NCBI GenBank assembly: GCA_037127815.1
Contig: JBAXXP010000002.1
Coordinates: 41,490 to 105,489, forward strand
From: a bacterium
GTDB lineage: Bacteria; Patescibacteriota; Minisyncoccia; Phycocordibacterales; CAIZLB01
Length of the DNA stretch: 64,000 bases
Direction of reading: 5' to 3'
Shown here piece by piece: positions 40,172 through 58,458 of this stretch. The notes beneath the pieces are model-generated. The model ran no database searches and was not told the DNA's origin. It saw only the letters and a program-made list of their open reading frames with translations. Made by a program: the position numbers and the translations under genes. Positions within the stretch are counted from its first letter, which is position 1; each line of letters opens with the position of its first letter.

Positions 40172-40215
40172 AAAGATCTACTGATTACGTTTCAATAAAA
40201 TAAACTAATTTAAAG

Positions 40216-40254
40216 CCCCCGCCAAGATTTGAAAATCTACTTGCGGGGGTTTTT
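40216..40254. terminator. Bidirectional GC-clamp terminator
   Basis: CCCCCGCAAGATT-tgaaa-ATCTACTTGCGGGGG followed by TTTTT. Serves the converging genes 39932(+) and 40258..40590(-). Confidence 0.6.
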
Positions 40255-40257
40255 AGT

Positions 40258-41881: not shown

Positions 41882-42087
41882 ACTTTAGACCTAGGTACTT
41901 TTTTTGAGTTGTCTGCTGAACACTGTACCTAACCCCAAGACATGGCTTTCCGAATAACTTATATTAAAGACAATACTATAATGAACTCGAATGCACTATA
42001 AATAATAGTAACAAAAACTCAATTAAAAAAATATTGACAAATTAAATATTAGTTATAACATTACATCAGGACTAGCACAATGCTCGT

Positions 42088-42297
42088 TTGCAACCGCATA
42101 TACATATGAGTGACGAATCCGACAGAATACAAGAGGCTCATGATGATGGAGAAAAATTCGAAGCGTCAAACACCTATGACCCATTAAAGATTATAGCTGA
42201 GGCGATCGATAAACACGTACGCTATGACCAAGAAGAATTGGATGCGTACGAAAAAGGAGCCGACAACGTCCGCAAGCAAAAGAGTGGATGGTGGTAA
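42088..42297 (+). CDS. Small acidic hypothetical protein
   Basis: 69-aa ORF followed by a clean terminator. Coding status is uncertain. Confidence 0.3.
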   Translation: MQPHIHMSDESDRIQEAHDDGEKFEASNTYDPLKIIAEAIDKHVRYDQEELDAYEKGADNVRKQKSGWW

Positions 42298-42410
42298 AAC
42301 GTAATAATTGAGGATCATCAGCCTACATATCCCAGGCTAACATCACCCGTTCATAACATCTCACAAGGTGTTACATCCAGCAGATCCTAACATGATCTAG
42401 CTTCTAATAT

Positions 42411-42434
42411 AGCCCACTTCGGTGGGCTTTTTTC
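42411..42434 (+). terminator. Intrinsic terminator
   Basis: AGCCCAC-ttcg-GTGGGCT followed by TTTTTT. A second hairpin, CACCACC...GGTGGTG plus a T-run, lies at ~42478-42510. Confidence 0.6.
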
Positions 42435-42571
42435 CTGTTTTAAATATTGGACAAATAACGACCCCAAATAACAAAACACCACCGCAATTACTTGGGTGGT
42501 GTTTTGTTATATAGGTTTTTGATTTTGTGCAATGAGCTGGGCTTCCCCACTATCTCATGTTCAAACTGATA

Positions 42572-43198
42572 TTACTTTATTATATTGTCCGCTAAGATCT
42601 TCTTAGAAACAGCCATGGCTTTTGCAACCTCTGACTTTTTCCAACAAGGAGCTGACGATATCCAAGGTGCAGTACCTTCCTCTTGATAAAGTAACTTGGC
42701 ATATGCCATGTTACCCTCAACGGAGTAAATATCATAACCTAGCTTTTTAGCACGCTTTGCGTGGTAATACTCATTAACCTGAGCAATTCCCACATCCTGA
42801 TTGTTAGCTATTCCTCTGAATGCGCTACCATCAGCATTAAATTGTCTAAAACGTGACTCACACTTAACGATTTCTGCCATTATAGGCGTATCCGCGAAGT
42901 ATAATCTAACCTTACTCTCTACTTCTGAATTAATATCAACCTTCTTTGTCTTAACTGGAGTATCATTTGTTGTATCTATTGATGCAGCATCTGCTACCTT
43001 AACTAAACTGATTGAAGTTGATGTTGTGGCTAGCGCGTCTTGTGTTTGAATAACTGCTGTTGTGTCTGTTCCTACTATTCCTGAAACAAGCATTGCTAAG
43101 CCGATTGTAAGTTGTAAAATAAAGAATCTATTATGTTTGTAATGCGTATGTCTAAGTCTGAATAGTCTATACGCTTGCACGGAAATCAAAAAGCACAT
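42572..43198 (-). CDS. Secreted lysozyme-like / lytic-transglycosylase-domain protein (Rpf/SLT-like)
   Basis: N-terminal TM/signal and Thr/Ser-rich linker, then a C-terminal region CESRFRQFNADGS...GIAQVNEYYH resembling the catalytic-Glu CES...G(L/I)xQ core of the lysozyme-like superfamily. Confidence 0.4.
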   Translation of the reverse strand: MCFLISVQAYRLFRLRHTHYKHNRFFILQLTIGLAMLVSGIVGTDTTAVIQTQDALATTSTSISLVKVADAASIDTTNDTPVKTKKVDINSEVESKVRLYFADTPIMAEIVKCESRFRQFNADGSAFRGIANNQDVGIAQVNEYYHAKRAKKLGYDIYSVEGNMAYAKLLYQEEGTAPWISSAPCWKKSEVAKAMAVSKKILADNIIK

Positions 43199-44827: not shown

Positions 44828-45592
44828 CTACTTAACTGCCTTATCAGCACGAATCATAGAAACAGCCTCATTTACAGTTGTCATAAACTGAGCTGGGAAG
44901 ATTATTGTAGAGTTCTTTTCTACTGAAATCTCAGCCATAGTTTGAAGCGTACGTAATTGTAATGCTACAGGGTGAGCAGAGATAAGATCTGCCGCCTCAC
45001 ATAATTTAACAGCAGCCTGGAACTCTCCTTCTGCCGCAACAATCTTTGCACGTCTCTCTCTTTCAGCCTCAGCTTCTTTTGCCATAGCACGTTGCATGTT
45101 ATCAGGAAGTGTAATGTCCTTGATCTCAACAGCAGTAACTTGAATTCCCCATGGTTCTGTATGAACATCGATAACTTCTTTAATTTGAATATTAATCTGA
45201 CTAGTTTTGGATAATAGTTGATCCAATTCAAATTGACCAACAATATTTCTAACTGTAGTCTGACTAATTTGGTTTACAGCATTATAAACATCTTCAATTG
45301 CAACAACAGACTTTTGAGGGTCTAAAATATGATAGTACGCAACAGCTGCGATATCAATTGAAACGTTATCTTTTGTAATAATCTTTTGCGATGGAATACT
45401 CATTGTTATCGTTCTTAGAGAAACCTTTGTCATTTGCTCTAAAATTGGAACGAGTATAATAAGCCCAGGACCACGAACGCCGGTACACTTTCCAAGGAAA
45501 AATATGACACCTCTGTCATATTCCTTGACCACCTTCAGTGACAGAAACAACAATACAACAAGAAGGACTATCCCGAATGTTATCAATTCCAT
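44828..45592 (-). CDS. SPFH/band-7 (stomatin/prohibitin-like) membrane protein
   Basis: N-terminal TM, the SPFH core, and a C-terminal charged coiled-coil (MAKEAEAERERRAKIVAAEGE). Confidence 0.8.
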   Translation of the reverse strand: MELITFGIVLLVVLLFLSLKVVKEYDRGVIFFLGKCTGVRGPGLIILVPILEQMTKVSLRTITMSIPSQKIITKDNVSIDIAAVAYYHILDPQKSVVAIEDVYNAVNQISQTTVRNIVGQFELDQLLSKTSQINIQIKEVIDVHTEPWGIQVTAVEIKDITLPDNMQRAMAKEAEAERERRAKIVAAEGEFQAAVKLCEAADLISAHPVALQLRTLQTMAEISVEKNSTIIFPAQFMTTVNEAVSMIRADKAVK

Positions 45593-45718: not shown

Positions 45719-46555
45719 TTAATCACCACTCAATTGCTTCACACTTGAATTACCTAAAAGTGCTGTCATTTGCCATATAGCAACTTCATTCAATTTAAGA
45801 AGCCTGTCTTTTTGAAGTAATCCTGATTTTATATATTCAGAATTTAAATTCTCAAGATTAACTAAACAAACTAATTGAGAAACATCTGCGTAATCTCTAA
45901 TATTACCTTCAAGCTTTGGATTTTTGTTTCCCCACTCTTTTGCCGTCATACCAAACAGTGCCATATTCAAGACATCAGCTTCATTAGCATAAACTAACAC
46001 AGAATCCTTACTTGATAACTTTTGGGGTAATATGATATTTTCTTTTATTGAATCAGTGTGTATTTTATAGTTTATCTTAGTTAGTAATCTTTTGACATTC
46101 CAATCTGAGGAAAGTTTTTCTTGTTCATTTGACTTAAGTCTTTGAAACTCCTTGATTAAGTAAAGTTTAAACTCTGGCGAAAGCCATGTGGCAAATTCAA
46201 AAGCAATGTCCTTGTGAGCAAAAGTACCGCCACCATACCGTCCAGGGGAGGATTTTATGCCAATTGCAGCAGTCTTTTCTATCCATCTCTTTGAAGAAAG
46301 TATAAATCCATTAGAACCCACCTGTTTTTTAATGTTATCGAATTCGATAACATTAAAATTTGGGTTATACATTTGCTCCCAAAAACCCATAAAATCAACT
46401 GTATACCCGGTTCTTAGCCAGTTTGCAATAATGATACCTGTTAATTGAGGGTCTTTAAACTTGGCCATGTCCGTCAACGATATATAATCATCACCTTTAC
46501 TAGATAAGTTAATTGTAATTTCTTGGTTCTTTATTTGTATTTTTACCATCCCCAC
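45719..46555 (-). CDS. KilA-N domain protein (phage/plasmid-associated DNA-binding family)
   Basis: N-terminal region ...GDDYISLTDMAKFKD...ANWLRTGYTVDFMGFWEQ matches the KilA-N/APSES-like pattern. The C-terminal half is unassigned. Confidence 0.45.
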   Translation of the reverse strand: MGMVKIQIKNQEITINLSSKGDDYISLTDMAKFKDPQLTGIIIANWLRTGYTVDFMGFWEQMYNPNFNVIEFDNIKKQVGSNGFILSSKRWIEKTAAIGIKSSPGRYGGGTFAHKDIAFEFATWLSPEFKLYLIKEFQRLKSNEQEKLSSDWNVKRLLTKINYKIHTDSIKENIILPQKLSSKDSVLVYANEADVLNMALFGMTAKEWGNKNPKLEGNIRDYADVSQLVCLVNLENLNSEYIKSGLLQKDRLLKLNEVAIWQMTALLGNSSVKQLSGD

Positions 46556-46760
46556 AATCTAGCAAAACAATATGAGTTTTCTATAAATATTTTGCAATAT
46601 TTTAATTGAGGAGTTAGATGCTGGGACCTGACCACAGACAAATTTTAGTTTGCTGTTAATCATATTATTTATCTTATTTAAAGATATTCCATACTCAGGC
46701 TTTATAATAAGGCTCGTTTTAGATTCTGCTAATTTGGTGCTAATTCTGGCAAAATTAGCA

Positions 46761-46791
46761 ACCGGAAAATCGGAATTTCCGATTTTCCGGT
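46761..46791. promoter_or_regulatory. Perfect 15-bp-arm palindrome in a divergent promoter region (candidate operator)
   Basis: ACCGGAAAATCGGAA-T-TTCCGATTTTCCGGT between the KilA-N start (46555, minus) and the cdaA start. It is preceded by GCTAATT...AATTAGC repeats. Confidence 0.4.
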
Positions 46792-46809
46792 GGAATAAGG
46801 GCTATTTGT

Positions 46810-46828
46810 GGGGTCAGGCACCACAGTG
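46810..46828. repeat. Half REP (left arm and centre only)
   Basis: GGGGTCAGGCACCACAGTG, then divergent sequence. Confidence 0.5.
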
Positions 46829-46890
46829 TATACAGTTCACCTGCGCGAACCCCTTGACCCCACCCCACTACATATGTTATAAAAAAGTAT

Positions 46891-48102
46891 ATGTTCAACA
46901 ACTTACCAAGCATGACTGCAGGGCTATGGGCCTTGCCAAATCAGGTTACTACGGCACTTCTTTCAATATCTGCGAAGGATCTTTTTGATATTGCCATTGT
47001 CGCAATCTGTATATACCTCGTTCTGATCTTCATTAGACAAACTCGTTCAAACTTCATTTTCAGTGCCATTGTTATACTTTTTGGGATTAACTTCATTTCT
47101 CAGGAATTTGATCTTGCACTCACTAGAACAATTTTTGCACCCCTTCTAACATTCTTTATCGCAATCTTCGTTGTGGTCTTTCAGCCTGAAATCAGAAAAT
47201 TTTTCAAATGGTTCAGTTCCGGAAGAAAGACAACCTTTGCTAAAGCGCTTTCTCTTCCTGAGGAAAATGCACAGACAATTGTTAACTCGGTTTTTGATAT
47301 GGCAAAGAAAAGGATTGGTGCAATTATTGTGCTTCCTGGACAATATCCATTAGACGATTTAATTGAAGGCGGCTTTCCACTGGATGGTCAGATTTCTAAG
47401 CCACTTATTTTAAGTATTTTTGATCCTACTTCCCCAGGACATGATGGTGCAATTTTAATTGAAGGCTCTCGAGTTAAAATGTTTGGCCTACACCTTCCTC
47501 TTGCTCGTGAGTTTGATGAGTATAGTAGAGTTGGAACAAGACACAGAGCAACGGCTGGAATCACTGAAAATACAGACGCACTTGCTATTGTTGTTTCTGA
47601 AGAGCGAGGTGAGGTTTCTGTTTCTCAAGGTGGTAAATTGAAAAAGGTTGCAACCCCTGAAGAATTGGCAAATATTATTCAGGGATTCACTAAAGTAGGA
47701 AGTAATGCATCAGAAATAGATAAGGGTCTTGCTCACTACTTCTTGGTTAAGAATAGTTACAGTAAAATATTTGCGATTGCTCTTGCTGTCATCTTCTGGT
47801 TCTTTGTTGTTTATACTGCTGGTGTTGTAAAGAGCACATATTCTGTACCTGTTGAATTTAAATATTTAAAAAGTGATATGGCAATTACTGCGGACTCATT
47901 GAGTACTATAAAAATTACAGTAACTGGAAGCAACAAAGATGTTGCGAGTTTAAAACCAGAAGATATTCACGCTATTGTTGATGCAAAAGATTTTAAGATT
48001 GGTACTAATGAGGTTACTCTAAAAGAAACTGATATTAAAATGCCGAGCTATATTCAATTGGATTCATTTACTCCAAAGAATTTGAATATTAAGACGAAGT
48101 AG
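46891..48102 (+). CDS. cdaA: Diadenylate cyclase CdaA (3 TM + DAC domain) fused to a CdaR/YbbR-like C-terminal module
   Basis: DAC motifs GAIIVLPG, PLDD, SPGHDGAILIEG, RVGTRHRATAGITE, DALAIVVSEERGEVS. Then an extra TM (IFAIALAVIFWFFVVYTAGVV) and a YbbR-like beta repeat. A TATAAA ~7 nt upstream of the ATG suggests a leaderless start; an alternative start is 46912. Confidence 0.7.
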   Translation: MFNNLPSMTAGLWALPNQVTTALLSISAKDLFDIAIVAICIYLVLIFIRQTRSNFIFSAIVILFGINFISQEFDLALTRTIFAPLLTFFIAIFVVVFQPEIRKFFKWFSSGRKTTFAKALSLPEENAQTIVNSVFDMAKKRIGAIIVLPGQYPLDDLIEGGFPLDGQISKPLILSIFDPTSPGHDGAILIEGSRVKMFGLHLPLAREFDEYSRVGTRHRATAGITENTDALAIVVSEERGEVSVSQGGKLKKVATPEELANIIQGFTKVGSNASEIDKGLAHYFLVKNSYSKIFAIALAVIFWFFVVYTAGVVKSTYSVPVEFKYLKSDMAITADSLSTIKITVTGSNKDVASLKPEDIHAIVDAKDFKIGTNEVTLKETDIKMPSYIQLDSFTPKNLNIKTK

Positions 48103-48109
48103 AGTAGTT

Positions 48110-48205
48110 GGGGTCAGGCGATTCAGCAGAATCGCCTACTGGGCCATTCAGCAGGATCGCCTACTGGGCGAGTTTGGTCTAAGATCTGAATCGTGTGCCT
48201 CACCC
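48110..48205. repeat. Composite long REP variant A
   Basis: GGGGTCAGGCGATTC-[two copies of a ~25-nt unit ATTCAGCAG(A/G)ATCGCCTACTGGGC]-...TGAATCGTGTGCCTCACCC. Confidence 0.7.
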
Positions 48206-48341
48206 TAAACTTATCCACATCGGTATTGTAAGACAGATTGACATTTCGTATAATATGGTGTAGGGTATAGATGTGTCTGTGGGCGTAAGCCTTGTTCGGC
48301 AAAAGGATTTCCTAAGTCGAAGACAGACACGATTAAAAAAG

Positions 48342-48368
48342 CACCTCGCAAGAGGTGTTTTTTTAATG
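48342..48368. terminator. Bidirectional terminator at the 3' end of the minus gene 48363..48839
   Basis: AAAAAAGCACCTC-gcaa-GAGGTGTTTTTTT. Confidence 0.55.
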
Positions 48369-48839
48369 CTTCATAATACTCCAAAAGATTGGATTTTGAC
48401 TATTCTCCACCTCAAGGATAATCACCCTGACTTCTACCGGTGTTTTTCTTCCAATAGTTGCAACTAGCGCATATTGTTTGGCTTTGACTTTTTTAGCATT
48501 CTTTTTACTATTTTGTGGCATGATTATATTTCTTTCTTCGTGAATTCCGATAGAGTTTTTAATTACAGGTACAGCCAATGGTACAAGGGTTAGTTTGTGT
48601 ATTTTCTCCGCAACTTTTCTAGGAGTTCCATCAGGTTTGTAATGGAGATGGTGAAAACCTTTTGCATTGAAAACAACATCTTTATTTAGTATAGGACAAA
48701 AAACTTTTCCTATAGACGTATAGGAAATTTTAGTTGCTGTACTTAATAGTTCACAGTGTTCAATTTGGTTTAAAATCACATCAAAAAAAATACCATAATT
48801 TACTATATTTTTCAATACCTTTTGGCAATGTGTACACAT
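48363..48839 (-). CDS. Hypothetical protein in a cassette bounded by long REP variants
   Basis: 158-aa ORF with N-terminal CxxC and no recognised domain, flanked by repeats at 48110-48205 and 48901-48980. Confidence 0.4.
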   Translation of the reverse strand: MCTHCQKVLKNIVNYGIFFDVILNQIEHCELLSTATKISYTSIGKVFCPILNKDVVFNAKGFHHLHYKPDGTPRKVAEKIHKLTLVPLAVPVIKNSIGIHEERNIIMPQNSKKNAKKVKAKQYALVATIGRKTPVEVRVIILEVENSQNPIFWSIMKH

Positions 48840-48900
48840 ATATGGCCCCTTTGATAGTATTAATATTAATGACTATACACATGCCACAAAACATCAAAGA

Positions 48901-48980
48901 GGATCGCCTACTGGGCCATTCAGCAGGATCGCCTACTGGGCCATTCTGGTCGAAGACCTGAATCATGAGTACCTAACCCC
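48901..48980. repeat. Composite long REP variant B (lacks the left GGGGTCAGGC arm)
   Basis: GGATCGCCTACTGGGCCATTCAGCAGGATCGCCTACTGGGCCATTC-TGGTCGAAGACC-TGAATCATGAGTACCTAACCCC. Confidence 0.7.
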
Positions 48981-48999
48981 AAATTAATGCAAGAAAAAT

Positions 49000-49027
49000 C
49001 CCCCGCGGCGCCATGGCGCCGCGGGGG
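49000..49027 (-). terminator. Perfect 28-bp GC palindrome terminator for the minus gene 49078..49776
   Basis: CCCCCGCGGCGCCATGGCGCCGCGGGGG, followed on the minus strand by ATTTTTCTT. Confidence 0.6.
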
Positions 49028-49077
49028 AAACTTGTTATCATTCACTTCATTTCAGATTGATTGGCTACGGCGGCACA

Positions 49078-49776
49078 TTATCGAATCGCGAAAGGTTGCC
49101 CCACAGCAATCCCCTCTGGTGATTCAATTTCAATGCTAAACCCGTAAGGATTTGTTGCGCCCCACCCACTTGCTTTCTGCACAACAAATTTATAAATTTC
49201 AGTTGGAGTTTCATTCTTCGGAAACTTTTTAGGCCCAGAATTATTAATACCAACTTTTAAACATGAATAGAAGTCATTTTGAACTGATTCTTTAATACCA
49301 CTAAAAGGATCACTGAATATCCAACTCATTACCCCGTAAGAAAACACGCCATTAGATAAAATGTACGCTGTTGGATAATCCTTGCACTTGATCTTATATT
49401 TAATCGTCACATTACTCCAATCAACGCCCGAAGTCCTGTATGTGATGACGTTACCATAAGAAGGGATATCATTCGGAATGCAAACAAACCTACTACCTGA
49501 GCAAAGTGGCCAATGGAATCCTGTTCCATTTTTCACCAGATTGGTAATCTTCCCACTACTATTCCTAACAATCCTATACTGAGGACTACTCAGATAAGGA
49601 ATAGAATTGAATTCATAAATAAAAGGGGAAATAAAAACTATCGCCACAGAAACAAAAAGATACTTTGGAATATATAAATCTTGCTGCACCTTTGTTTTCC
49701 AAAGGTAGGTATAGAGAAGCCAAAGCACAGCAAAATACACAATGCATGCGAGCATAACAAATACTGGATAGTACAT
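49078..49776 (-). CDS. Hypothetical membrane-anchored protein
   Basis: Two N-terminal TM helices and a Cys-containing soluble domain with no known motif. Lies downstream of the giant surface-protein gene on the same strand. Confidence 0.4.
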   Translation of the reverse strand: MYYPVFVMLACIVYFAVLWLLYTYLWKTKVQQDLYIPKYLFVSVAIVFISPFIYEFNSIPYLSSPQYRIVRNSSGKITNLVKNGTGFHWPLCSGSRFVCIPNDIPSYGNVITYRTSGVDWSNVTIKYKIKCKDYPTAYILSNGVFSYGVMSWIFSDPFSGIKESVQNDFYSCLKVGINNSGPKKFPKNETPTEIYKFVVQKASGWGATNPYGFSIEIESPEGIAVGQPFAIR

Positions 49777-49962
49777 GATTTTATTTAGTTGGAGTTGAAA
49801 TAGCTCAAATCACTGGCTGGGAATCAGCCGAGTCAAAGAGCAGTACATCGGACATAGTGCATCATTTATTGATGTTTTACAAGCCCGCACTCTTTGACAT
49901 TAGTTGTTTACTGATTTTAATAAAACCTAGATCATATACTAATCCAAAAAAACATGTTCACT

Positions 49963-52900
49963 TTATTTCTCTACAGTATTTGCCAAACTTGTGCACTTAG
50001 ACTCTAGAACAGCGGTTGCATTAGACTTAATAATTGCTCCGGTAGAAGATGTACCACTATTGTAATCCACACTACATGATAACGTATGTTTACCTACATT
50101 TTTTTGAACATCCTTAAACATTTTTCCACCGGTTGAGCTAGGTAGAAGACTTACACTTACCCCATCAATTGAACACGCTATTACATTAATACCTCTATAA
50201 GTTTTACCATCTGACATAACAATAGTAGGATCTATTTGACCAAGATATGCGCATTTTTTTGTTGTCTGATTTGCCCATGGTGGATTTGCTTTAAAACTCA
50301 TTCCACTCTCTATAGTTAGACCAGCACTTGTGCCAGTGCCAGTAGCACCATCTTCACCCAACTTAGGACATGCTGGGGTAATATTATCTACCCAAGTCTG
50401 GTCCCCCATTGGCTTCCCAGAGTATATTGCCCTAATACCAAATGAGACATTTGTATTATTTAGATATTGAGAAATATCTACAGTTGTACCTGTTATAATT
50501 TTGTGTACGGAGGTTAAATCAGTTTTATTTTTAACTTCAAAATCATAGCTTGTAGCATCTGGAACAGTATTCCAAGATAGGTTTGGGGATACACAATAGA
50601 ATAATGCTTGGACTTTAGGTTTATCAGAGACAGTTATAGCAAAAGATTTCCAAGCCGATGAAATACCGCTAACAGTTTCCGTAGCTTTGACTCTAAAAGT
50701 AAAATTTCCTTTTGCGTTCCATGTATTGGATGATGAAACCTCTACACCAGGTAGTACGGGCGTGCTTGTAGATACTTTAGTACCATCATTATTCCAATCA
50801 AATGTATATACGAATTTAGGCCCTGTATCAGCCTGTGCAAAAACTTTTTTGAAAGCAAAAATTATTGATGCAAGAAATGAAGTATTTTCTTTTTTTGCGA
50901 CAGGATTCAAATGAGACACAGCTGTATATGTTGTTGATAATCCGAGTGAAACAGCTGTTGGGCCGGTGACAGTTGGAGGTGAGATAGATAACGCTGCTGT
51001 GGGAGGAACAGTAATGGCGTAGGTGATTGGAGCGAAGGAGAAAGCATAGCCTGCTATCGTACTTTGGTCTCTGCTGAGCTGAGATTCGCATATATCATAG
51101 TAATCACATACGGTAGTGATAACATTAACATTGACTACACCGAAACCATTACTATGACCTCCAAAATAATCTTGATACAAAGTATACAAGTACGTAGCTT
51201 CTGACACATAACCATATGGAGTAATCCAGGAAAACATATTATATGCAAAATTGTAAGCAGCGATGTTAGTTTTTGCAAATCTACCAGGAATACACCCTAT
51301 ATTTTGTCCTGCCCAAGGATCAAAATGCTTATACCAAACAAATGTCCAATGAAACATATCACAAGTATTGATAGTATTACTTGTCTCATGTTGTACATCT
51401 GAAAAAGAAACCGTAATATTAGCACTACCAGGGCCGACTGCTGTACATTTATTTGACTCACAAGATACAACATTTGAATCATTCGACGTTAAAGTGGTAG
51501 TACCTGATTCTAAGGGAACTCCCACATTAAAACTTCCATACTCAAGATGTGAATACCACCCACTTTCAAAAGTCATCTCCCACGTTTGATAATCACTCTT
51601 ATAATAATTATTCCCATCCATCGGAGAAACTCCTCCATACGACGGATCATAAAGATACCAATATCCCTGTGATGGTAACGATGTGGCATTAATTACTTCT
51701 CCTACTGTTAGTAAACTTGTAGTTGCGTCATCTAGATTAACCCCAGATTTAATTAAGTTAAAATACTTAGATATTTTTCCACCCAAAGAAAAACTCCACG
51801 GGTCAGCAGGTGCATTATATCCAGTCCAAGATCCCCCTTGAGGCAGGTCAACACTAAAATCTGCGGTCCTTGTTGCTGCCTCCGTCTTATGAGAAAACGT
51901 AGGTGCGTAAAACGAAATGGAAAACAAAACAAACATCAACATTACTACACCACCCAAACTTCTCTTATTCCCCTTTACATTTATTTTATTTTTAATACTC
52001 ATCCACACTATCACTCCAAAAAATACTAATACAATTATTCCACCCAAGGCATACAAAATCCACGTCCAATAATCGACTTTGTAAACTGGGCATAATTTAG
52101 GATCAATATCCTTACATTTATAATTATCCTCGATCTTGTCTATCACATTACCATTGCTGTCTGTTATGGTTGTGATAGTTTTAAAGTTCACTAAATCTTT
52201 CTTAGGTGTAAACTTGCCAGCAATAGTCTCTATGATTCTACCAATTTTTCCGTTGTATTGCGTTTCTGAAATAACATTATTTTGATCATCAAATAAAACA
52301 GTATCGATATTTACAGGGTTTAATGCGTTTTGATTTGATCCATTTTGAAAACAAGTAAACAGTACTGCTTCTTGGCCGACTTTAATTGGGTACGTATTCA
52401 CGCCAAAATTATTTATTCTTGGATAATCAAAACCAGAAACAGTGAACCTTATATTAGATTCCGTTTTAACACTATAGATGCTTCTATCATTTTTCAAATT
52501 AGTATTATCAGCTTTTATATTCAAAAAATAAACCGGCGCGTCTATCTTCTTTGTCGTATATACCAAATTAACCTTACTATTTTCTGGAACTATTACCTCC
52601 TCTGTTTTTGTATCCACTTTATTTTTTTCCAATAATCCATCCCATTTATATAGAGAATATACCACTGTCATTTTTTCAGCAGTATTTGAAGGGTTAACTA
52701 ATAATATAGAAACATCTACTTTTTTACTATTGTCCTGATTAGACGCAAAAGACGACGTGTCATAAGGTTTATTATTCAGCGTGATTTTAGTTTGATCCAA
52801 ATAAATTTGTTGAGTATTATCTCCTTCAACTCTAAAACCTAGGTTTGAAGCTGTTGCATTATTTGTAAAAGATAGTCCAGATTGATTAAATCTATCGTCA

Positions 52901-53535
52901 TTATATACATAAAATAATATCTTATAATTACCCTTTGGCGAATTTAATGGCAGTACATGAGAGTAATTAACTGCAAGACTTTTACCAGCACCTAACGTTA
53001 TATTTTCTACTATATTAAAATCTTCCAACGTAATAATTTCTGATCTTAAATATTCTGGATTTGGAATATCCTTTACCAGCCTAGCTCTAACGGTTAGATT
53101 TGTGATTGGATATTTATTATTATTTTTTATTACACCACGAATAATCATAACATCTCCAGGATTGTATGTGTTCATATCATTAGTAAGATCTACATCAACA
53201 CTACCAAAAGTTGAGTAATCGGTACACTGAGCTGGTTGACCTTGCTTGTATGCTGTTAAATCTACCGTTGTAGTCGCCTTTTGATTTCTAAAAATAAATG
53301 AAGAGCTTGCATTTAGAAGCAATTGCTTGTAAGTAGATGATGAGACTAAAGCCCTGTCTGGTAAGTATAAAATAGGACGAGTAGTTGTTGCAAAATTATA
53401 TGTATGAGCATTTTTTTGATCTAACCTGAACCCATTCTTGTCATAGATTTTTGGATCAAGTTTAGTTTGAGCAAAAACAGAGGTAGATACACTTAACAAA
53501 ATCAATGCAAATAGCAGCAAAAAAATCTTTTTCAT
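49963..53535 (-). CDS. Giant (1190 aa) secreted/surface protein with signal peptide, internal TM segments and beta-rich Ser/Thr/Asn-rich domains
   Basis: Signal peptide MKKIFLLLFALILLSVSTSVFA, two hydrophobic segments near residues ~490-545, and a C-terminal region with an FN3-like signature (SWNTVPDATSYDFEV). Confidence 0.7.
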   Translation of the reverse strand: MKKIFLLLFALILLSVSTSVFAQTKLDPKIYDKNGFRLDQKNAHTYNFATTTRPILYLPDRALVSSSTYKQLLLNASSSFIFRNQKATTTVDLTAYKQGQPAQCTDYSTFGSVDVDLTNDMNTYNPGDVMIIRGVIKNNNKYPITNLTVRARLVKDIPNPEYLRSEIITLEDFNIVENITLGAGKSLAVNYSHVLPLNSPKGNYKILFYVYNDDRFNQSGLSFTNNATASNLGFRVEGDNTQQIYLDQTKITLNNKPYDTSSFASNQDNSKKVDVSILLVNPSNTAEKMTVVYSLYKWDGLLEKNKVDTKTEEVIVPENSKVNLVYTTKKIDAPVYFLNIKADNTNLKNDRSIYSVKTESNIRFTVSGFDYPRINNFGVNTYPIKVGQEAVLFTCFQNGSNQNALNPVNIDTVLFDDQNNVISETQYNGKIGRIIETIAGKFTPKKDLVNFKTITTITDSNGNVIDKIEDNYKCKDIDPKLCPVYKVDYWTWILYALGGIIVLVFFGVIVWMSIKNKINVKGNKRSLGGVVMLMFVLFSISFYAPTFSHKTEAATRTADFSVDLPQGGSWTGYNAPADPWSFSLGGKISKYFNLIKSGVNLDDATTSLLTVGEVINATSLPSQGYWYLYDPSYGGVSPMDGNNYYKSDYQTWEMTFESGWYSHLEYGSFNVGVPLESGTTTLTSNDSNVVSCESNKCTAVGPGSANITVSFSDVQHETSNTINTCDMFHWTFVWYKHFDPWAGQNIGCIPGRFAKTNIAAYNFAYNMFSWITPYGYVSEATYLYTLYQDYFGGHSNGFGVVNVNVITTVCDYYDICESQLSRDQSTIAGYAFSFAPITYAITVPPTAALSISPPTVTGPTAVSLGLSTTYTAVSHLNPVAKKENTSFLASIIFAFKKVFAQADTGPKFVYTFDWNNDGTKVSTSTPVLPGVEVSSSNTWNAKGNFTFRVKATETVSGISSAWKSFAITVSDKPKVQALFYCVSPNLSWNTVPDATSYDFEVKNKTDLTSVHKIITGTTVDISQYLNNTNVSFGIRAIYSGKPMGDQTWVDNITPACPKLGEDGATGTGTSAGLTIESGMSFKANPPWANQTTKKCAYLGQIDPTIVMSDGKTYRGINVIACSIDGVSVSLLPSSTGGKMFKDVQKNVGKHTLSCSVDYNSGTSSTGAIIKSNATAVLESKCTSLANTVEK

Positions 53536-53596
53536 GGTGAAAATTATATCATAAACAAATAAATAATTTAACTATTATATAGTGTATAATAGTTAG

Positions 53597-54451
53597 ATGA
53601 AACTAATTACAAAAGTTTTAATATCACTGATTCCAATATTTGTAGTTTTTTTATATGGCATAATTGGCATCAAACTCTCCCCTACGTATGCAGAAGCAAG
53701 CGTTGCTCCAAAAATTAAAATACTAATCGTAGCGGGTCATGAACCAGATTACGGTGGTGCAATTTATAAGACATTGAAGGAGAGAGAATTGAATTTGCAG
53801 CTGGCTGAGAAAATCGTAAAGAATCTTGAGAAAAACCCAAGATATGATGTTGTGGTTTCAAGAGATGATAAAGGCTGGAATCCTGAACTACAGTCATATG
53901 TCACAGACAACAAAGAAACAATCTTGTCATGGTCTGCAGACAAAAAACACGTAAGGAATTTTTTAACGGCAATAGGTGGGGCCTCTGTTATAAATTCCAA
54001 AATGGGTCATGTAACAGCAAATGCAACATCTTCGCTTTATCTATTTGGAATAAACAAATGGGCCAACGATACAAAGGTTGATATGGCAATCAATATTCAC
54101 TTTAATGATAATTTAAAGTATAAAGGCAAGCCAAATTTTGAAGGATTCTCAATTTATATACCAGAAAGACAATATTCAAATTTTGCACCTAGTAAGAAGT
54201 TTGCATGGGGTCTACTTGATGAAATGTTGAAAATAAACAGAATTAGTTCCATGAAGGAAGAAAGCGATGGTATTATCGAGGATCAAGAGCTAATTGCATT
54301 AGGAGTTAATAATACCGCTAATGAACCGTCGGTCATTGTTGAATATGCATATATATACGAGAAATTTATGCAGAAAAAGAAAACAAGAGATGCCTACATT
54401 AATAAAGCAGCATCATCAACAGTGCTTGCGATAAATAAATATTTTAAATAG
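53597..54451 (+). CDS. N-acetylmuramoyl-L-alanine amidase (Amidase_3-like)
   Basis: N-terminal TM, KILIVAGHEPDYGGA, ...VDMAINIHFND and a conserved E, consistent with the zinc amidase family 3 pattern. Divergent from the giant protein gene. Confidence 0.5.
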   Translation: MKLITKVLISLIPIFVVFLYGIIGIKLSPTYAEASVAPKIKILIVAGHEPDYGGAIYKTLKERELNLQLAEKIVKNLEKNPRYDVVVSRDDKGWNPELQSYVTDNKETILSWSADKKHVRNFLTAIGGASVINSKMGHVTANATSSLYLFGINKWANDTKVDMAINIHFNDNLKYKGKPNFEGFSIYIPERQYSNFAPSKKFAWGLLDEMLKINRISSMKEESDGIIEDQELIALGVNNTANEPSVIVEYAYIYEKFMQKKKTRDAYINKAASSTVLAINKYFK

Positions 54452-54461
54452 CTTTGAATTT

Positions 54462-54489
54462 GGGGTCAGACACCATGGTGCCTGACCCC
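54462..54489. repeat. REP-like palindrome (copy)
   Basis: GGGGTCAGACACCATGGTGCCTGACCCC. Confidence 0.8.
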
Positions 54490-54497
54490 AAATTCAT

Positions 54498-54845
54498 CTA
54501 TAGACCTAACTCTTTCTGTCGAGGATCATACCCATGAGAATGTCTTTCATGATCATGATGTTCTGGGTGTGATAATATATCAAATTTACCATCAGCCTCT
54601 GTAACATACTCTCTAACAGTTTTACCATCTATATCGTTGTACTCAACATAAAACTCGCCAACTCCCCCTTTCAAATCTTTTTTTGGAATAAATATATGAG
54701 TTCCATCAGGATATGTTACGTAAATATTTGGACTCAATTCCTCCTCTGGCGCAGCTGCAATTAGTGGATCTATTGATTCTGCGATGTGACGCATTTCTGG
54801 ATCAAAAGTTTCCCTATTATCAAAATTTGGTATTCCATTTGGCAT
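54498..54845 (-). CDS. Hypothetical protein with His-rich C-terminus, bracketed by two REPs
   Basis: 115 aa, ending ...HPEHHDHERHSHGYDP. Confidence 0.35.
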   Translation of the reverse strand: MPNGIPNFDNRETFDPEMRHIAESIDPLIAAAPEEELSPNIYVTYPDGTHIFIPKKDLKGGVGEFYVEYNDIDGKTVREYVTEADGKFDILSHPEHHDHERHSHGYDPRQKELGL

Positions 54846-54866
54846 ATTTTATATTATACCTTATTT

Positions 54867-54894
54867 GGGGTCAGGCACCATGGTGCCTGACCCC
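54867..54894. repeat. REP palindrome immediately upstream of the RAYT gene
   Basis: GGGGTCAGGCACCATGGTGCCTGACCCC. Confidence 0.85.
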
Positions 54895-54962
54895 AAAAGT
54901 TATCCACAACCATAGTATAAAATCTTTGGCTTTTCTTTTATTTCAATTCTTATGATTTACTC

Positions 54963-55559
54963 ATGCCAAGACAACCAAGAGTTGATATTGCTAATAATTA
55001 TTATCACTGCATTAATCGTGCAAGCGCTAGATTAAAGATTAATTTTAATGATGATGATTTTAGATTAATAATAAAAGTGCTTTTTGAAGCACAAAAAAAA
55101 TTTAATATTGATATATTAGCATTTGCTATAATGAATAATCACTTTCATTTAGTCATAAAAACAAATCAAGATAAACAAATGTCTCAATTCATGAAATGGT
55201 TTACCTTTGTTCATACTAAAAGATGGCATTTTATAAACAAGACAGCCGGAACCGGACATCTATATCAAGGCAGATACAAGTCATTTATAATTTTAGATCA
55301 GAGACATCTGGAAACCGTCATCAGATATGTTGAAAGAAACCCTTTAACGGCAAATATTGTCAAGAATATACTAGACTGGAAATACTCAAGTTTATATCAG
55401 AGATATGTTTCAAATAAAGTGAATTCTATAGCACAGACTCAAATGCAAATAAAATTAGCTGATTGGCCCTATAATGAATCAATAGATTATTTGAAAAATC
55501 TTATTGAACCATACACAAATAAGGAAATAGAGAAAGCTCTTGAGTCAGAAATGGAGTAA
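54963..55559 (+). CDS. REP-associated tyrosine transposase (RAYT; HUH/Y1 transposase, COG1943 / IS200-like family)
   Basis: NYYHCINRASAR..., HUH motif NHFHLVIKT, and the hallmark GHLYQGRYKSFIILDQRHLETVIRYVERNPLTANIV...YSSLYQRY. Confidence 0.8.
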   Translation: MPRQPRVDIANNYYHCINRASARLKINFNDDDFRLIIKVLFEAQKKFNIDILAFAIMNNHFHLVIKTNQDKQMSQFMKWFTFVHTKRWHFINKTAGTGHLYQGRYKSFIILDQRHLETVIRYVERNPLTANIVKNILDWKYSSLYQRYVSNKVNSIAQTQMQIKLADWPYNESIDYLKNLIEPYTNKEIEKALESEME

Positions 55560-55563
55560 TTTT

Positions 55564-55591
55564 AGGGTCAGGCACCGTGGTGCCTGACCCT
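55564..55591. repeat. REP palindrome immediately downstream of the RAYT gene
   Basis: AGGGTCAGGCACCGTGGTGCCTGACCCT. Confidence 0.8.
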
Positions 55592-55648
55592 AAAAAACAA
55601 TCAAAAACCCCTCCGCGGTTGCGGAAGGGGTGTAATACATTTTACAGT

Positions 55649-56128
55649 CTAACGAGTCTGTCGACCCCCTGAAATTGAAAAATGTTTTGAAATAATATCA
55701 CAGTTCTTTGGCTCATGTTTGTCGCCAAGAAATTGTTCAATCTCCAACATGTGACTGATGAATATAAAGAATGCGGTAGGTGCTGGTGTAATTAACGTAG
55801 TCACATTATTATTATTCAAACTATGCTTACTACAATCCAGCCAATCAACTTCTTCAAGCTCCTTAGGTCTGACCCTAAGTAAATTAAATAATGAATCATA
55901 GACAACTCCAGCCGTCATCAAAGCCCTTGGGGTTGGCGAATGAAAAATCCTAATGTCATTCTTGTGCGGTTTGATCAGATTACCAAGGACCTGAACGTTC
56001 CTTTGGCAGATCTCCACAGAATTCCACTTAAGCCTAGCGCCGTCCGCTGTGACGTATTGAGCAGCATGGCGCATAACAGCGTATCTGGAATTCAAAAAAC
56101 GATTCACGTAACTCTTACTACTTCTCAT
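55649..56128 (-). CDS. SixA-like histidine phosphatase (phosphohistidine phosphatase family), paralog 1
   Basis: AVMRHA (RH[GA] catalytic motif), HSPTPRALMTAGVV (SPxxRAxxTA) and FIFISHMLEIEQF (catalytic His), matching the SixA pattern IMRHGDA / SPFLRAEQT / VISHLPLV. Confidence 0.45.
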   Translation of the reverse strand: MRSSKSYVNRFLNSRYAVMRHAAQYVTADGARLKWNSVEICQRNVQVLGNLIKPHKNDIRIFHSPTPRALMTAGVVYDSLFNLLRVRPKELEEVDWLDCSKHSLNNNNVTTLITPAPTAFFIFISHMLEIEQFLGDKHEPKNCDIISKHFSISGGRQTR

Positions 56129-56235
56129 GTTTTATTGGGGTTGGGGTTCTATTCTCTTTCTTGAAATGAGCGGCTTTTCTATCAAAGCTCTGGCCAAACA
56201 CTACCATAGATTTTTAACCTTGTAAATATAAGAAA

Positions 56236-56262
56236 AGGGTCAGGCTATGAAAGCCTAACCCT
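56236..56262. repeat. Degenerate REP-like palindrome between the two SixA-like genes
   Basis: AGGGTCAGGCTATGAAAGCCTAACCCT. Confidence 0.5.
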
Positions 56263-56291
56263 TTTTAAAACTGCATGGTGTGCAAGGCAAT

Positions 56292-56831
56292 TTAAAAATC
56301 AGTCAGCAATCTGCCATTCACGATGACATGTTGTCTTGTGATAATCGAACAACTGCACGGCTCCCAAGCAGCAGAACCGATAAAATTGCACATATTTGGC
56401 ATATGAGTAATAAAGAATGAAAAATGAAGATCTCCCTCTGAACAAACTGTGTTCATATTTGCATTAATACTCCCCTCTTTTCCGTCTTCGCAACCCAACC
56501 ATTGAACTGGCTGAATATTAGAAACGGGAATGTTATGACAAGCAAACTCAGACCTAACCATCTGGGCGGTGAGCTCAGCCCGCCTCAACGGAGAGTAAAA
56601 AATACTGACCACAACATTGGGATTATCGGTGAAGTCCTCAAGTTCATGAGTTACAAGAACCTGAATATTTCTTCTGCCGATTTTGACTGAATTACGGCAA
56701 AGCTCAATTCCACTTTGTCCTTCAAAATAATGTGCATGCCGCATCACAGCATAACCATCACGTGTAAACCTACCACTGTAACTGTTCATATTATTGAATA
56801 TTTGAATTGTTTTGATAGAACGAGTAGACAA
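56292..56831 (-). CDS. SixA-like histidine phosphatase, paralog 2 (TTG start)
   Basis: YAVMRHAHYF, YSPLRRAELTAQMV, FFITHMPNMCNF. Confidence 0.45.
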   Translation of the reverse strand: MSTRSIKTIQIFNNMNSYSGRFTRDGYAVMRHAHYFEGQSGIELCRNSVKIGRRNIQVLVTHELEDFTDNPNVVVSIFYSPLRRAELTAQMVRSEFACHNIPVSNIQPVQWLGCEDGKEGSINANMNTVCSEGDLHFSFFITHMPNMCNFIGSAAWEPCSCSIITRQHVIVNGRLLTDF

Positions 56832-56888
56832 GAGCGCCTACTTCCGATTGTAATATTACATCTATTTTATTCTTTGTACAGTCAATTT

Positions 56889-56935
56889 GGGGTCAGGCGA
56901 TTCTGGTCGCAGACCTGAATCGTGTGCCTGACCCC
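56889..56935. repeat. Long REP variant C (extended-stem palindrome)
   Basis: GGGGTCAGGCGATTC-TGGTCGCAGACC-TGAATCGTGTGCCTGACCCC. Confidence 0.75.
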
Positions 56936-56940
56936 AAATA

Positions 56941-58458
56941 TTAGAAAGCTAGATGATCCTCATCCCCCATGAATATGGTTCCACTATCATCCGACATTCT
57001 TTTCATGAAGTTTGTAATTCTTTCATCAATCATAATATGACGTCTAACTAATGGAGTTTTTAGAATCATTCCATCTAAACTTCTACACCTACTTAAAGCA
57101 ACATAAGCTTGTCCATGGGTAAATGTTCCTCTACCAAAGTCTACAACAACATTACTATAAGTTTTTCCCTGTCCTTTGTGAATTGTAATTGCCCAAGCGA
57201 GTCTAATTGGAAACTGAGTAAATGTTCCAACTACGTCGGTGTCTACTGAGTCAAAATCTTTATCATAAGAAAATTTCACCATTTCCCAAGTGTACTTTGG
57301 TACCAAATAATTTTCACCGTTTTCTAATCGAACAAAAATTTCCTGCTTGTTTTCATTTATACTTGTTATGGTTCCAAGGTCACCATTTACCCATCTTGCT
57401 TCCTTGTCATTATTCAACATCATAATCCTTGCGCCTTCTTTTAATGCAAGACATTCATTGGTTGGAAAATTTCTTTCAAATGATCCAGATTTTTTACCCT
57501 TAAATATTATTTTATTTGTTTCGAGTTCATTCAGCTTCCCAAGATTAAGTGCATCAGCCATCGCATTTGTTGTGACAAGAAAAATATAATCACTATATTG
57601 CATTGGGTCAATATTATCCTCCATTGGATTTAGATATCTCTTATTTAAAAGTGTTAAATGTGAATCTTTAAGATTTCCAGACCTCACACCTTCTAGTATA
57701 TCTATGAATTTATCATCGTCCTGTCTGTAGATTTTACTTAGCTCTATAAGTTCAAAATCTGCTTTCAGAAATACTTTTGAATCAAAAAAGTATGGACTCT
57801 TATAGTACGATGAAAACATTTCTTCCTCATAGCTAGTTACAACTGGTGGAAGCTGAAACATATCCCCTACTACAATTATTTGAGTACCGCCAAATGGAGT
57901 ATTTTTATCTTTTCCATTTAATCGCATAAACGTGTCTACACAATCAAAAAGATCAGCGCGAACCATAGAAATTTCATCAATAATTATTGTATCTATGTTT
58001 TTATAAATCGCAGTGCTTCCTGTTGCTTTCTTTATGGACATAGGACTTACATTTATTCCAAATTTAAAGAACGAGTGAATAGTTTGTCCACTAATGTTTA
58101 CTGCGGAAACCCCAGTTGGTGCGAGTATGACAATTTTCTTTTTTGTTGTAGCTTTGAAATACCTAACAAGAGTTGTTTTTCCAGTTCCCGCTTTTCCAGT
58201 AAGAAAAATATTTGTTGAAGTACTTTCCATTTTGTTAAGTGCAACGAGCGTCTCATCATTCAATTCCATATTTGCAAATTCTTTGGAAAGTTTTTCCGCT
58301 AGAGCTTTATCTCCAGATCCTGGATTTTGTTTTTCCGATTTTTCAGCTGCAACTTTTGCAAGGGTTTTTTTAAAAATTTCTGTCTTAGATGGGCCAGTTT
58401 TGCTGGCTTTGGATTTCTTGTTGAATTTGGAATATGAAGAGAATGTGGAAAATGGCAT
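56941..58458 (-). CDS. Pif1/RecD-like SF1B DNA helicase
   Basis: Walker A LTGKAGTGKTTL, Walker B IIIDEISMV, GDMFQLPPV and motif V AITIHKGQGKTY. The start is set at MPFSTF because the upstream 21 codons of the track ORF are just the GC terminator hairpin at 58482-58505. A TATAAT sits 7 nt before the ATG (leaderless-like). Confidence 0.75.
   Translation of the reverse strand: MPFSTFSSYSKFNKKSKASKTGPSKTEIFKKTLAKVAAEKSEKQNPGSGDKALAEKLSKEFANMELNDETLVALNKMESTSTNIFLTGKAGTGKTTLVRYFKATTKKKIVILAPTGVSAVNISGQTIHSFFKFGINVSPMSIKKATGSTAIYKNIDTIIIDEISMVRADLFDCVDTFMRLNGKDKNTPFGGTQIIVVGDMFQLPPVVTSYEEEMFSSYYKSPYFFDSKVFLKADFELIELSKIYRQDDDKFIDILEGVRSGNLKDSHLTLLNKRYLNPMEDNIDPMQYSDYIFLVTTNAMADALNLGKLNELETNKIIFKGKKSGSFERNFPTNECLALKEGARIMMLNNDKEARWVNGDLGTITSINENKQEIFVRLENGENYLVPKYTWEMVKFSYDKDFDSVDTDVVGTFTQFPIRLAWAITIHKGQGKTYSNVVVDFGRGTFTHGQAYVALSRCRSLDGMILKTPLVRRHIMIDERITNFMKRMSDDSGTIFMGDEDHLAF

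Follow-up and report, generated by a model that had tools for sequence, protein, structure and literature searches.

The stretch of DNA analysed here, referred to as the window, comprises 64,000 nucleotides (positions 41,490 to 105,489) of contig JBAXXP010000002.1 from GenBank assembly GCA_037127815.1, assigned to the Patescibacteriota; all repeat counts given below cover this window of 64 kb. Its GC content is approximately 35%, and the genome is of a low-GC, Patescibacteria type with a system of repetitive extragenic palindromes (REPs) and a REP-associated tyrosine transposase (RAYT). Behind the gene cdaA, two composite REPs (designated copies A and B) bracket a segment of 0.8 kb, which a first-pass annotation had described as a nested element resembling a miniature inverted-repeat transposable element (MITE), or as an insertion hotspot that had captured or mobilised a gene. 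The segment was found to hold a gene for a small, LPD3-like protein and, convergent to it, a gene for a conserved structured RNA. We consider it fairly probable that the locus is a REP cluster with nested, GTAG-tagged hairpins lying within an insertion hotspot, and that the enclosed protein-RNA module was imported and was not moved by the REPs.

The enclosed open reading frame (ORF), annotated with 158 amino acids, probably encodes a protein of 138 amino acids starting at the GTG codon at 48779 (Table 1), since its homologues are of about this length (73 were identified, typically of 138 amino acids) and since a promoter-like site is located within the annotated N-terminal extension. The motif N-A-K-G-F-H-H-L is invariant or near-invariant in the family, and residues R74, E78, K82 and R103 are conserved; such residues would suit a nucleic-acid enzyme, a suggestion which no fold match supports. 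Matches to the Pfam domain LPD3 (PF18798) were obtained for 6 of 31 family members (best E = 8.7e-6), with no match for the window protein itself. In BFVD the top matches were three phage polyvalent proteins of 1100-1400 amino acids (probability 0.92-0.98, E 0.02-0.08), one of which is annotated as LPD3, and a second LPD3-annotated protein was found at rank 27 (probability 0.60). No nuclease or ToxN-like fold was found for the 138-amino-acid protein, and PADLOC returned no meaningful match.

LPD3 is a domain of the polyvalent proteins of phages and conjugative elements, of which solo forms exist (Iyer et al. 2017, PMC5512222). The family is similar to it in these weak sequence and fold matches and in its association with mobile elements, and differs in that the protein stands alone, in that the window protein lies below Pfam significance and in that no RNA partner has been described for LPD3; a literature search found no paper linking LPD3 to an RNA. 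The superfamily comprises more than 1000 clusters at 50% identity. At the other loci examined the family gene never adjoined cdaA, and its neighbours varied, including ERF and HNH phage genes, a tyrosine integrase with Phage_rep_O and a Dam methylase, RelB/YafQ, and a large serine recombinase of 574 amino acids; the modules are often located beside integrases, phage genes or toxin-antitoxin genes.

The protein gene had been described as the only gene between copies A and B, with a bidirectional terminator of its own. The terminator is indeed present (stem at 48342-48357), but the gene is not alone, as a gene for a conserved non-coding RNA (ncRNA) lies on the plus strand of the same interval (48271-48365). 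The T tract of the RNA terminator overlaps the stop codon of the convergent protein gene, and the bidirectional terminator is common to both. The non-coding DNA past the stop codon is 72-92% identical in nearly every other locus of the family and is often more conserved than the gene. The RNA core is a three-way junction composed of P1 (7 bp), P2 (4 bp, with a GNRA loop) and P3 (5 bp, with a variable hairpin P4), the junction residues of which are invariant. The strand of the RNA is fixed by its frequent G-U pairs, its promoter and its terminator. The promoter in the window is the positional homologue of the TTGACA-N17-TAxxxT promoters that precede the RNA at other loci; an alternative promoter is also given in Table 1.

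A covariance model of the RNA (designated R1) identified exactly one convergent RNA beside the family gene in 18 out of 18 assessable loci, with scores of 44-83 bits; these included the distant members P0241 and P0322, whose proteins are approximately 32-38% identical to family members. Across 17 RNA sequences 94% of the pair cells were paired, compared to at most 48% in slid controls, and changes on both sides were observed for 11 of 19 pairs; none of 500 shuffles reached the observed values. These figures come from an alignment fitted to model R1, which favours it; a separate MAFFT/RNAalifold run gave six covarying pairs. When the window was screened against Rfam 15 there was no match at the gathering threshold, and the only overlapping matches below it were to Phe_leader (24.9 bits, gathering 55) and RNAI (18.1 bits, gathering 47). 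Likewise, L045, L046 and L049 gave no Rfam match at E <= 1. The RNA belongs to a family so far uncatalogued, and Rfam 15 has no entry for it.

The RNA was also detected without the protein gene in three phage or viral contigs (58, 71 and 34 bits), among which L041 has a terminase gene. No family protein was found in the viral contigs, either with peptide patterns or with a profile hidden Markov model applied to the six-frame ORFs of L041, L048 and L049 (fetched sequence). An ORF of 99 amino acids beside the phage RNA was considered as a family protein and proved unrelated (hhalign probability 0.5%). Antisense control of the mRNA was also considered and rejected, the best RNA-mRNA duplexes being no stronger than those of shuffled sequences and having no constant site; an 11-nt match to the codons for KGFHH, present in L016 and L017, did not extend to other loci. 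Locus L015 carries, 1.6 kb upstream of its intact module, a second and degenerate one, made up of a gene fragment that is 40% identical over 79 amino acids (3918-4151) and an RNA (4346-4408) scoring 39 bits.

Comparison of the loci indicates that the enclosed DNA is an imported, self-contained module of two genes, encoding the LPD3-like protein of 138 amino acids and the convergent RNA of approximately 95 nt, and that gene and RNA travel together between unrelated loci of many Patescibacteria genomes; the module was found on approximately 18 other contigs, at unrelated loci. It is conceivable that the RNA is not the partner of the protein. tRNA and tmRNA genes serve as attB integration targets, and an autonomous small RNA gene might do likewise, in which case the phage copy would be the attP and the protein a conserved neighbour. 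The complete RNA copies without protein in three phage contigs would fit such a role, as would the integrase or recombinase genes within approximately 1 kb of the module in two contexts, but most loci have no integrase nearby, the module moves location as a whole, both parts of the second module of L015 are degenerate, and the convergent arrangement with its common terminator is kept in all 18 loci, down to proteins of approximately 32-38% identity. We regard this explanation as unlikely.

The layout of the module was compared with those of known RNA-antitoxin systems. In type III toxin-antitoxin systems (ToxIN), a tandem-repeat RNA antitoxin is encoded upstream of the toxin, in the same orientation, and is processed by the toxin, an endoribonuclease; phages escape ToxIN with pseudo-ToxI. 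The present module is similar in the tight linkage of a small protein gene to a structured RNA with a terminator between them, in its mobile, conflict-type neighbourhoods and in the occurrence of the RNA alone in phages. It is unlike ToxIN in that the RNA is single-copy and lies convergent and downstream, and in that the protein has no ToxN-like or other nuclease fold; together with the lack of a PADLOC match, these differences led to the rejection of membership in type III. Type I systems (par/fst of pAD1, txpA/RatA) have convergent transcripts and one bidirectional terminator, and the RNA and mRNA of the module likewise converge, with 3' ends overlapping at one terminator. Here, however, the protein is a soluble alpha/beta protein of 138 amino acids and not a small hydrophobic peptide, and RNA-mRNA pairing outside the terminator equals that of shuffled sequences. 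As the layout resembles that of RNA-antitoxin systems while none of their defining features is present, the module was not assigned to them.

In the mechanism that we propose, much as in a type III toxin-antitoxin system or an abortive-infection pair, the protein would be bound and controlled or neutralised by the RNA, and the lone RNA of phages would serve as a decoy. Our leading guess is a toxin or defence pair neutralised by RNA. That the RNA binds and restrains the protein and that its phage copies act as decoys is put forward tentatively, as a possibility with somewhat more against it than for it. The broader proposal, in which mobile elements of Patescibacteria would carry protein and RNA as a conflict module of a kind not described before, with the RNA as antitoxin or sensor and the phage RNA as decoy, is more speculative still. 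Although a by-product of the analysis of the repeats, the module is its more valuable result: a protein family of more than 1000 clusters always paired with a strongly covarying RNA from outside Rfam, which occurs alone in phage contigs. If it is an RNA-controlled toxin or defence module, it would be of a new type, a class of effectors under RNA control that is both new and widespread, and would provide the first functional handle on LPD3, which is common in phage polyvalent proteins.

The REP of the window is a perfect palindrome of 28 nt, GGGGTCAGGCACCATGGTGCCTGACCCC, located mostly within a ttt...aaa context. Its arm, GGGGTCAGGC, occurs 21 times with at most one mismatch, compared to 0.9 expected, and as a single strand the 28-mer forms a strong hairpin (z = -7.1). 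Between 44.2 and 57 kb a REP is present in 10 out of 12 intergenic gaps; a gene with a REP on both sides is therefore the local norm, and bracketing of a gene such as that between copies A and B is expected by default. From what is known of the family, the REP hairpins at the 3' ends of convergent genes are probable 3'-end stabilisers or terminators as well as substrates of the RAYT, and they would not be the vehicle of the enclosed DNA. A degenerate 28-mer at 46810-46840, upstream of cdaA, is read through by a spurious ORF of 112 amino acids (46650-46988, ...YLWGQAPQC...). REPs of this genome can yield false ORFs and N-terminal extensions, for example that of the 158-amino-acid annotation. 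A further perfect palindrome, of 30 nt and GC-rich (TCCCCCGCGGCGCCATGGCGCCGCGGGGGA), is located at 48999-49028, just past copy B and behind a gene of 225 amino acids; it has the CCATGG centre of the 28-mer and a terminator-like score on both strands, and may be another type of REP.

Three long variants (copies A, B and C) keep arms of the 28-mer and hold other hairpin modules in the loop. All three had been described as having arms split by inserted sequence; alignment with the 28-mer bears this out for A and C and not for B, which has no 5' arm. Copy A is built from the left arm GGGGTCAGGC, two 25-nt units arranged head to tail, a degenerate inner hairpin and a 3' arm with two mismatches (GCCTCACCCT). 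Two repeats of the unit had been reported for both A and B, and the number is correct for A, in which Tandem Repeats Finder (TRF) detected a period of 25 nt with 2.1 copies at 48117-48169, while B holds approximately 1.7 units, its start at approximately 48900 falling inside a unit. The inner hairpin of B is close to that of copy C, which has the arms of the 28-mer and the inner hairpin GATTC-T-GGTC-GCA-GACC-T-GAATC. The nested, composite architecture suggested by the first reading was thus upheld, in the form of an array of GTAG-type REP hairpins and a second hairpin between 28-mer arms. Folded as single strands, C gave a strong hairpin (-21.5 kcal/mol, z = -8.9) and A a moderate one (z = -3.5), and B folded no better than shuffled sequences (z = -1.0).

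Copies A and B are direct repeats with 68 nt in common at 90% identity and a distance of 772 nt from start to start. Their unit arrays are identical at 41 of 42 positions, whereas their 3' scaffolds are 72% identical (A-C 78%, B-C 82%); near-identical units on diverged scaffolds argue against a single recent duplication of the whole element and favour two older scaffolds on which the unit arrays were later spread or homogenised. A and B would accordingly be two separate REP scaffolds like those of the neighbouring gaps. The recent spread or homogenisation of their units might have come about through gene conversion across the 772 nt, or through insertions of RAYT type at GGCG|ATTC, and copy B would since have lost its 5' arm and be decaying. 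Each unit both follows and ends with ATTC.

The core of the unit, ATCGCCTACTGGGC, occurs exactly four times in the window (at 48131, 48156, 48903 and 48928), compared to 0.1 expected. Read on the minus strand, as GGCCCAGTAG-GCGATYC-TGCT-GAAT(CGC), the unit consists of an unpaired GTAG and, after it, a short hairpin; in A and B this strand carries CCCAGTAG-GCGATTC-TGCT-GAATCGC. Unit 1 of copy A (GGCGATTC-AGCA-GAATCGCC) has a stem of 8 bp, and unit 2 pairs at 6 of the 8 positions. A scan of public metagenome contigs with CAGCAGRATCGCCTACTGGGC returned 11 loci (GC 35-62%), of which 10 (GC 35-54%) are non-coding hairpins of GTAG type; the GTAG-tagged form, cccaGTAG-GCGATTC-NNNN-GAATCGC, is present in these 10 and in the relative L038, which has four dispersed copies of the unit in 10 kb. 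Three contexts were observed in the metagenomes: palindromes such as CCCAGTAGGCGATTCGATTCAGCAGAATCGCCTACTGGG (L031, L033, L034), arrays of units (L027, L036/L037) and a hybrid identical to the start of copy A, GGGTCAGGCGATTCAGCAGAATCGCCTACTGGGC (L035). Stems on other contigs carry compensatory variants (GTGATTT/AAATCAT, GCGATTT/AAATCGT and ATGATTC/GAATCAT). The unit, for which a search elsewhere had been proposed, is therefore not unique to this locus, and its recurrence together with the compensatory stem changes identifies it as a REP in its own right. On contig L030 (Ga0137405_1322740; 5.6 kb), terminal inverted repeats of approximately 70 nt (1-75 and 5560-5633) both finish in a GTAG REP hairpin, TCGATTCAGCAGAATCGCCTACTGGGC; these termini may have arisen as an artefact of assembly at a REP, or the contig may be a REP-bounded element.

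RAYTs and REPINs (doublets of REPs) have reportedly been studied by Nunvar, by Bertels and Rainey, by Ton-Hoang and by Messing, and REP/RAYT systems have mostly been described in the Proteobacteria and a few other phyla. Members of the GTAG REP superfamily are short (20-40 nt), imperfect palindromes able to fold into hairpins, dispersed at high copy number and with a cognate RAYT gene that has the repeat on its flanks. The hairpin has an unpaired GTAG at one end; the survey of these REPs covered eight phyla and also records RAYTs whose flanking inverted repeats are unrelated (Di Nocera et al. 2013, PMC3733652). The 25-nt unit has both the hairpin and the terminal unpaired GTAG of this superfamily. 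A RAYT-like Y1 (HUH) transposase gene is located approximately 6 kb from copies A and B. Its product has HUH and Tyr motifs and scored 66.8 bits with NF047646 (cutoff 80), compared to 21.7 bits with the IS200 model, and 58 bits with the Pfam domain Y1_Tnp (PF01797); 615 homologues (E <= 1e-10) were found in metagenome-assembled genomes of Patescibacteria, the sources of which bear names such as Kaiserbacteria and Parcubacteria. On either side of the gene a 28-mer is located (54867-54894 and 55564-55591), and the two form inverted arms of 46 nt with 85% complementarity.

The repeats of the window share several features with the GTAG REPs, their clusters resembling bacterial interspersed mosaic elements (BIMEs) and the RAYTs of Proteobacteria: short extragenic hairpins with an unpaired GTAG at one end, a position 3' of convergent genes, several REP types per genome and a single Y1 (HUH) transposase gene between inverted repeats. 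They differ in the Patescibacteria-type host, in that the abundant repeat is an untagged perfect palindrome of 28 nt, in the GTAG hairpins being arranged head to tail and nested between palindrome arms, and in a RAYT that falls below the NCBIfam cutoff. The repeats belong with the GTAG REPs and RAYTs, and what is new is that, in a host of Patescibacteria type, GTAG hairpins are nested head to tail within a scaffold formed by an untagged 28-mer. A REPIN consists of two REPs in inverted orientation and is thought to be the unit moved by the RAYT (PMC3116915, PMC3337134). Compound REP structure is common to REPINs and the window, and copy C folds into one long hairpin, but in A and B the units follow one another in the same orientation with a period of 25 nt and the span from A to B is 0.8 kb with coding content; the REPIN was rejected as a model, the units being head to tail and single long hairpins being limited to C and the 28-mer. 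The window represents a REP/RAYT system in a reduced Patescibacteria genome, and a literature search found no paper on REPs or RAYTs in Patescibacteria.

The suggestion that the segment is MITE-like was not borne out, given that A and B are direct and not inverted repeats, that no target-site duplication is visible at their outer edges, that the window contains no second copy of the cassette and that the segment encodes a protein and an RNA. Nor is capture or mobilisation of the gene by the repeats supported, for the same reasons of orientation, target site and copy number and because the population shows no polymorphism (eight assemblies were 100% identical over 47900-49200, with neither an empty site nor a different number of units) and the other loci of the family that were searched are without these REPs. 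The REP or unit of the window was absent from 16 other family loci searched (14 genome loci and two further). Flanking repeats were scanned at 11 module loci: eight had none, L015 and L017 had repeated promoter blocks, and in L018 the module stood between copies of a different REP, that of the L018 genome. Flanking repeats common to the module across genomes were rejected, with no general pattern in the loci scanned. In L015 (3777-6154) there are four copies of a 64-nt block of promoter and ribosome-binding site, 77-88% identical to the reference copy, and in L017 (5939-6006 and 6947-7014) two copies of such a block of 68 nt (91%); at both loci the module lies within an array of small genes, every one of them preceded by such a near-identical block, and the layout suggests an array of cassettes whose expression signals are repeated.

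Two explanations in which the cassette has moved by way of A and B were weighed. According to the first, the cassette is a non-autonomous, IS200/IS605-like (peel-and-paste) element that has A and B for its ends, and the nearby RAYT recognises the same-strand, subterminal hairpins there in trans and moves the 0.8 kb as single-stranded DNA. Elements of this family and their non-autonomous derivatives have a Y1 transposase and same-strand hairpins at both ends of the segment, and here the Y1 transposase gene is 6 kb away and direct repeats with GTAG-tagged hairpins lie on one strand exactly at the module ends, although the hairpin of B is weak. No conserved cleavage tetranucleotides were defined, however, the transposase lies outside the segment, and neither multiple copies nor excision was seen. 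The module of L018, bracketed by two direct copies of that genome's own REP, would agree with an element of this kind, but the window holds a single cassette, the eight assemblies are identical and without an empty site, 16 other family loci do not have the window's REP or unit, 8 of the 11 scanned have no flanking repeats, B has no 5' arm and folds no better than chance, and REPs occupy 10 of the 12 gaps in any case. This was judged very improbable.

According to the second, A and B are attL/attR-like products of a Campbell-type integration, in which a circular molecule bearing part of a REP along with the module recombined, by homologous or site-specific exchange, with a chromosomal composite REP behind cdaA and so duplicated the repeat. 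Direct repeats of approximately 70 nt with cores 98% identical and differing outer parts are as expected of hybrid att sites, and family members elsewhere are located beside tyrosine or serine recombinases. There is, on the other hand, no recombinase gene in or beside the cassette, the nearest integrase-like function being the RAYT, which works differently; such a flanking duplication of the module was not found in other genomes, and no circular or empty form was seen. Integration of this type is doubtful, if slightly less so than transposition of an IS200/IS605-like element.

Overall, we judge the hotspot to be real and the REP cluster within it to be an ordinary one, and the part worth following up to be the conserved protein-RNA pair. 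Several observations weigh against this reading. Copies A and B are each other's closest relatives and stand exactly at the two ends of the module, and a different REP brackets the module in L018 also, so that a causal link between REPs and insertion is conceivable. All four units of the 64-kb window are at the A/B locus, the copy numbers of the unit and of the long variants being those of this window. The RAYT-like gene is flanked by the untagged 28-mer and not by GTAG units, and its product is below the NCBIfam cutoff (66.8 compared to 80 bits). With regard to the module, the interaction of protein and RNA is suggested by their co-occurrence only, and the gene arrangement is unlike that of known type III toxin-antitoxin systems.

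The hotspot itself is larger than had been proposed. The gene cdaA and a PIF1-family helicase gene (pif1) are convergent neighbours in all six relatives compared, which were the closest non-identical CdaA homologues (74-81% identity); orthology of cdaA and pif1 was established by tblastx or tblastn for L038, L039 and L050 and was taken from gene lists for the other relatives. Between the two genes the relatives have from no gene to at least two genes, compared to a variable island of 8.8 kb in the window, which contains eight protein genes, one ncRNA gene and seven REPs (Table 1). The cdaA-pif1 loci of the relatives are without the enclosed gene, in agreement with the proposed test for orthologous loci that have no counterpart of the 48.1-49.0 kb segment. 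With the unit also present elsewhere, the first reading withstands the refutation proposed along with it, which required a unit unique to this locus and relatives that all have the gene without flanking repeats. The small genes in the gaps of L038 and L050 are homologues of the 115-amino-acid ORF of the window. Compared to L050, the window has gained two blocks, the first at 48103-54497 (copy A, the module, copy B, genes of 225 and 1190 amino acids, an amidase gene and a REP) and the second at 55592-56940 (genes of 159 and 165 amino acids, a degenerate REP and copy C); a small RAYT mini-island has grown into the 8.8-kb variable region.

The stop codon of pif1 is abutted in L050 by a REP of the plain 28-mer form, in L038 by a GTAG hybrid (GGGTCAGACGATTCTGGTGAATCGCCTACTGGGCCCC) and in the window by the long variant C, so that the REP forms replace one another at an equivalent site. 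No REPs were found at the loci of L039, L042 and L044. The three REP forms at one orthologous site in three relatives constitute a natural series for the study of REP diversification and hotspot growth.

Table 1. Positions of the features of the window, and content of the cdaA-pif1 gap in the six relatives
Feature	Position	Strand	Description
Variable island	48103..56940		Between convergent cdaA (46891..48102, +) and pif1 (56941..58458, -)
Copy A, composite REP	48110..48205	+	Starts 8 nt after the cdaA stop codon
Alternative ncRNA promoter	48226-48254	+	TTGTAA-17-TATAAT
ncRNA promoter	48238..48266	+	TTGACA (48238-48243), 17-nt spacer, TAGGGT (48261-48266)
Conserved structured ncRNA, ~95 nt	48271..48365	+	62-nt core (48271-48332), linker, terminator stem (48342-48357), T7 tract (48358-48364)
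LPD3-like protein gene	48363..48839	-	Annotated 158 amino acids; probable coding sequence 48363..48779, GTG start, 138 amino acids
Promoter-like site of protein gene	48815-48787	-	TTGAAA-17-TATTTT, inside the annotated N-terminal extension
Copy B, 5'-truncated paralogue of A	48900..48980	+	Without left arm; ~1.7 units; degenerate 3' arm
RAYT-like Y1 (HUH) transposase gene	54963..55559	+	198 amino acids; motifs NHFHLV (HUH) and GRYKS
Copy C, long REP variant	56889..56935	+	Without units; 6 nt from the pif1 stop codon
Intact 28-mer copies	10527, 27485, 44284, 45643, 54462, 54867, 55564		
Degenerate 28-mer copies	18843, 43505, 46810, 56236		
Gap in L039/L040			No gene; cdaA and pif1 overlap
Gap in L042/L043			One gene of 106 amino acids
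Gap in L038			One gene of 145 amino acids and one REP
Gap in L044			One surface-protein gene of 731 amino acids
Gap in the P0077 contig			At least two genes
Gap in L050			Gene of 103 amino acids, 28-mer, RAYT gene, 28-mer

Other genes of the region were also noted. The island contains a gene of 1190 amino acids without a Pfam domain (49963-53535) and an Amidase_3 gene. A KilA-N domain gene (45719-46555) and a Band_7 gene (44828-45592) are located between the L27 gene and cdaA, where L039 has different genes; the variable region therefore reaches both sides of cdaA.

The consensus of the DnaA box, TTATCCACA, occurs as an exact match at 48211-48219, directly after copy A, and at 54900-54908, after the REP upstream of the RAYT gene. 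The latter is kept in the relative L050 (approximately 2758-2767), as part of the conserved upstream region of the RAYT gene, and, when counted by eye, the 27-nt stretches that follow copy A and the RAYT-side REP agree at approximately 70% of positions. In L018 all three copies of its different REP end in GTTAT(C/A)CACA (5881-5889, 6720-6728 and, in reverse, approximately 6609-6617). Interpretation of TTATCCACA as a DnaA box was rejected, the window having four exact copies and, with at most one mismatch, 27 compared to 22 expected, which is not above chance. Finally, the cumulative GC skew of the window rises until approximately 41 kb and then falls (turning at approximately 40000-43000), which suggests that the window spans a replication terminus and that the variable island with its many REPs lies a few kb away from it.

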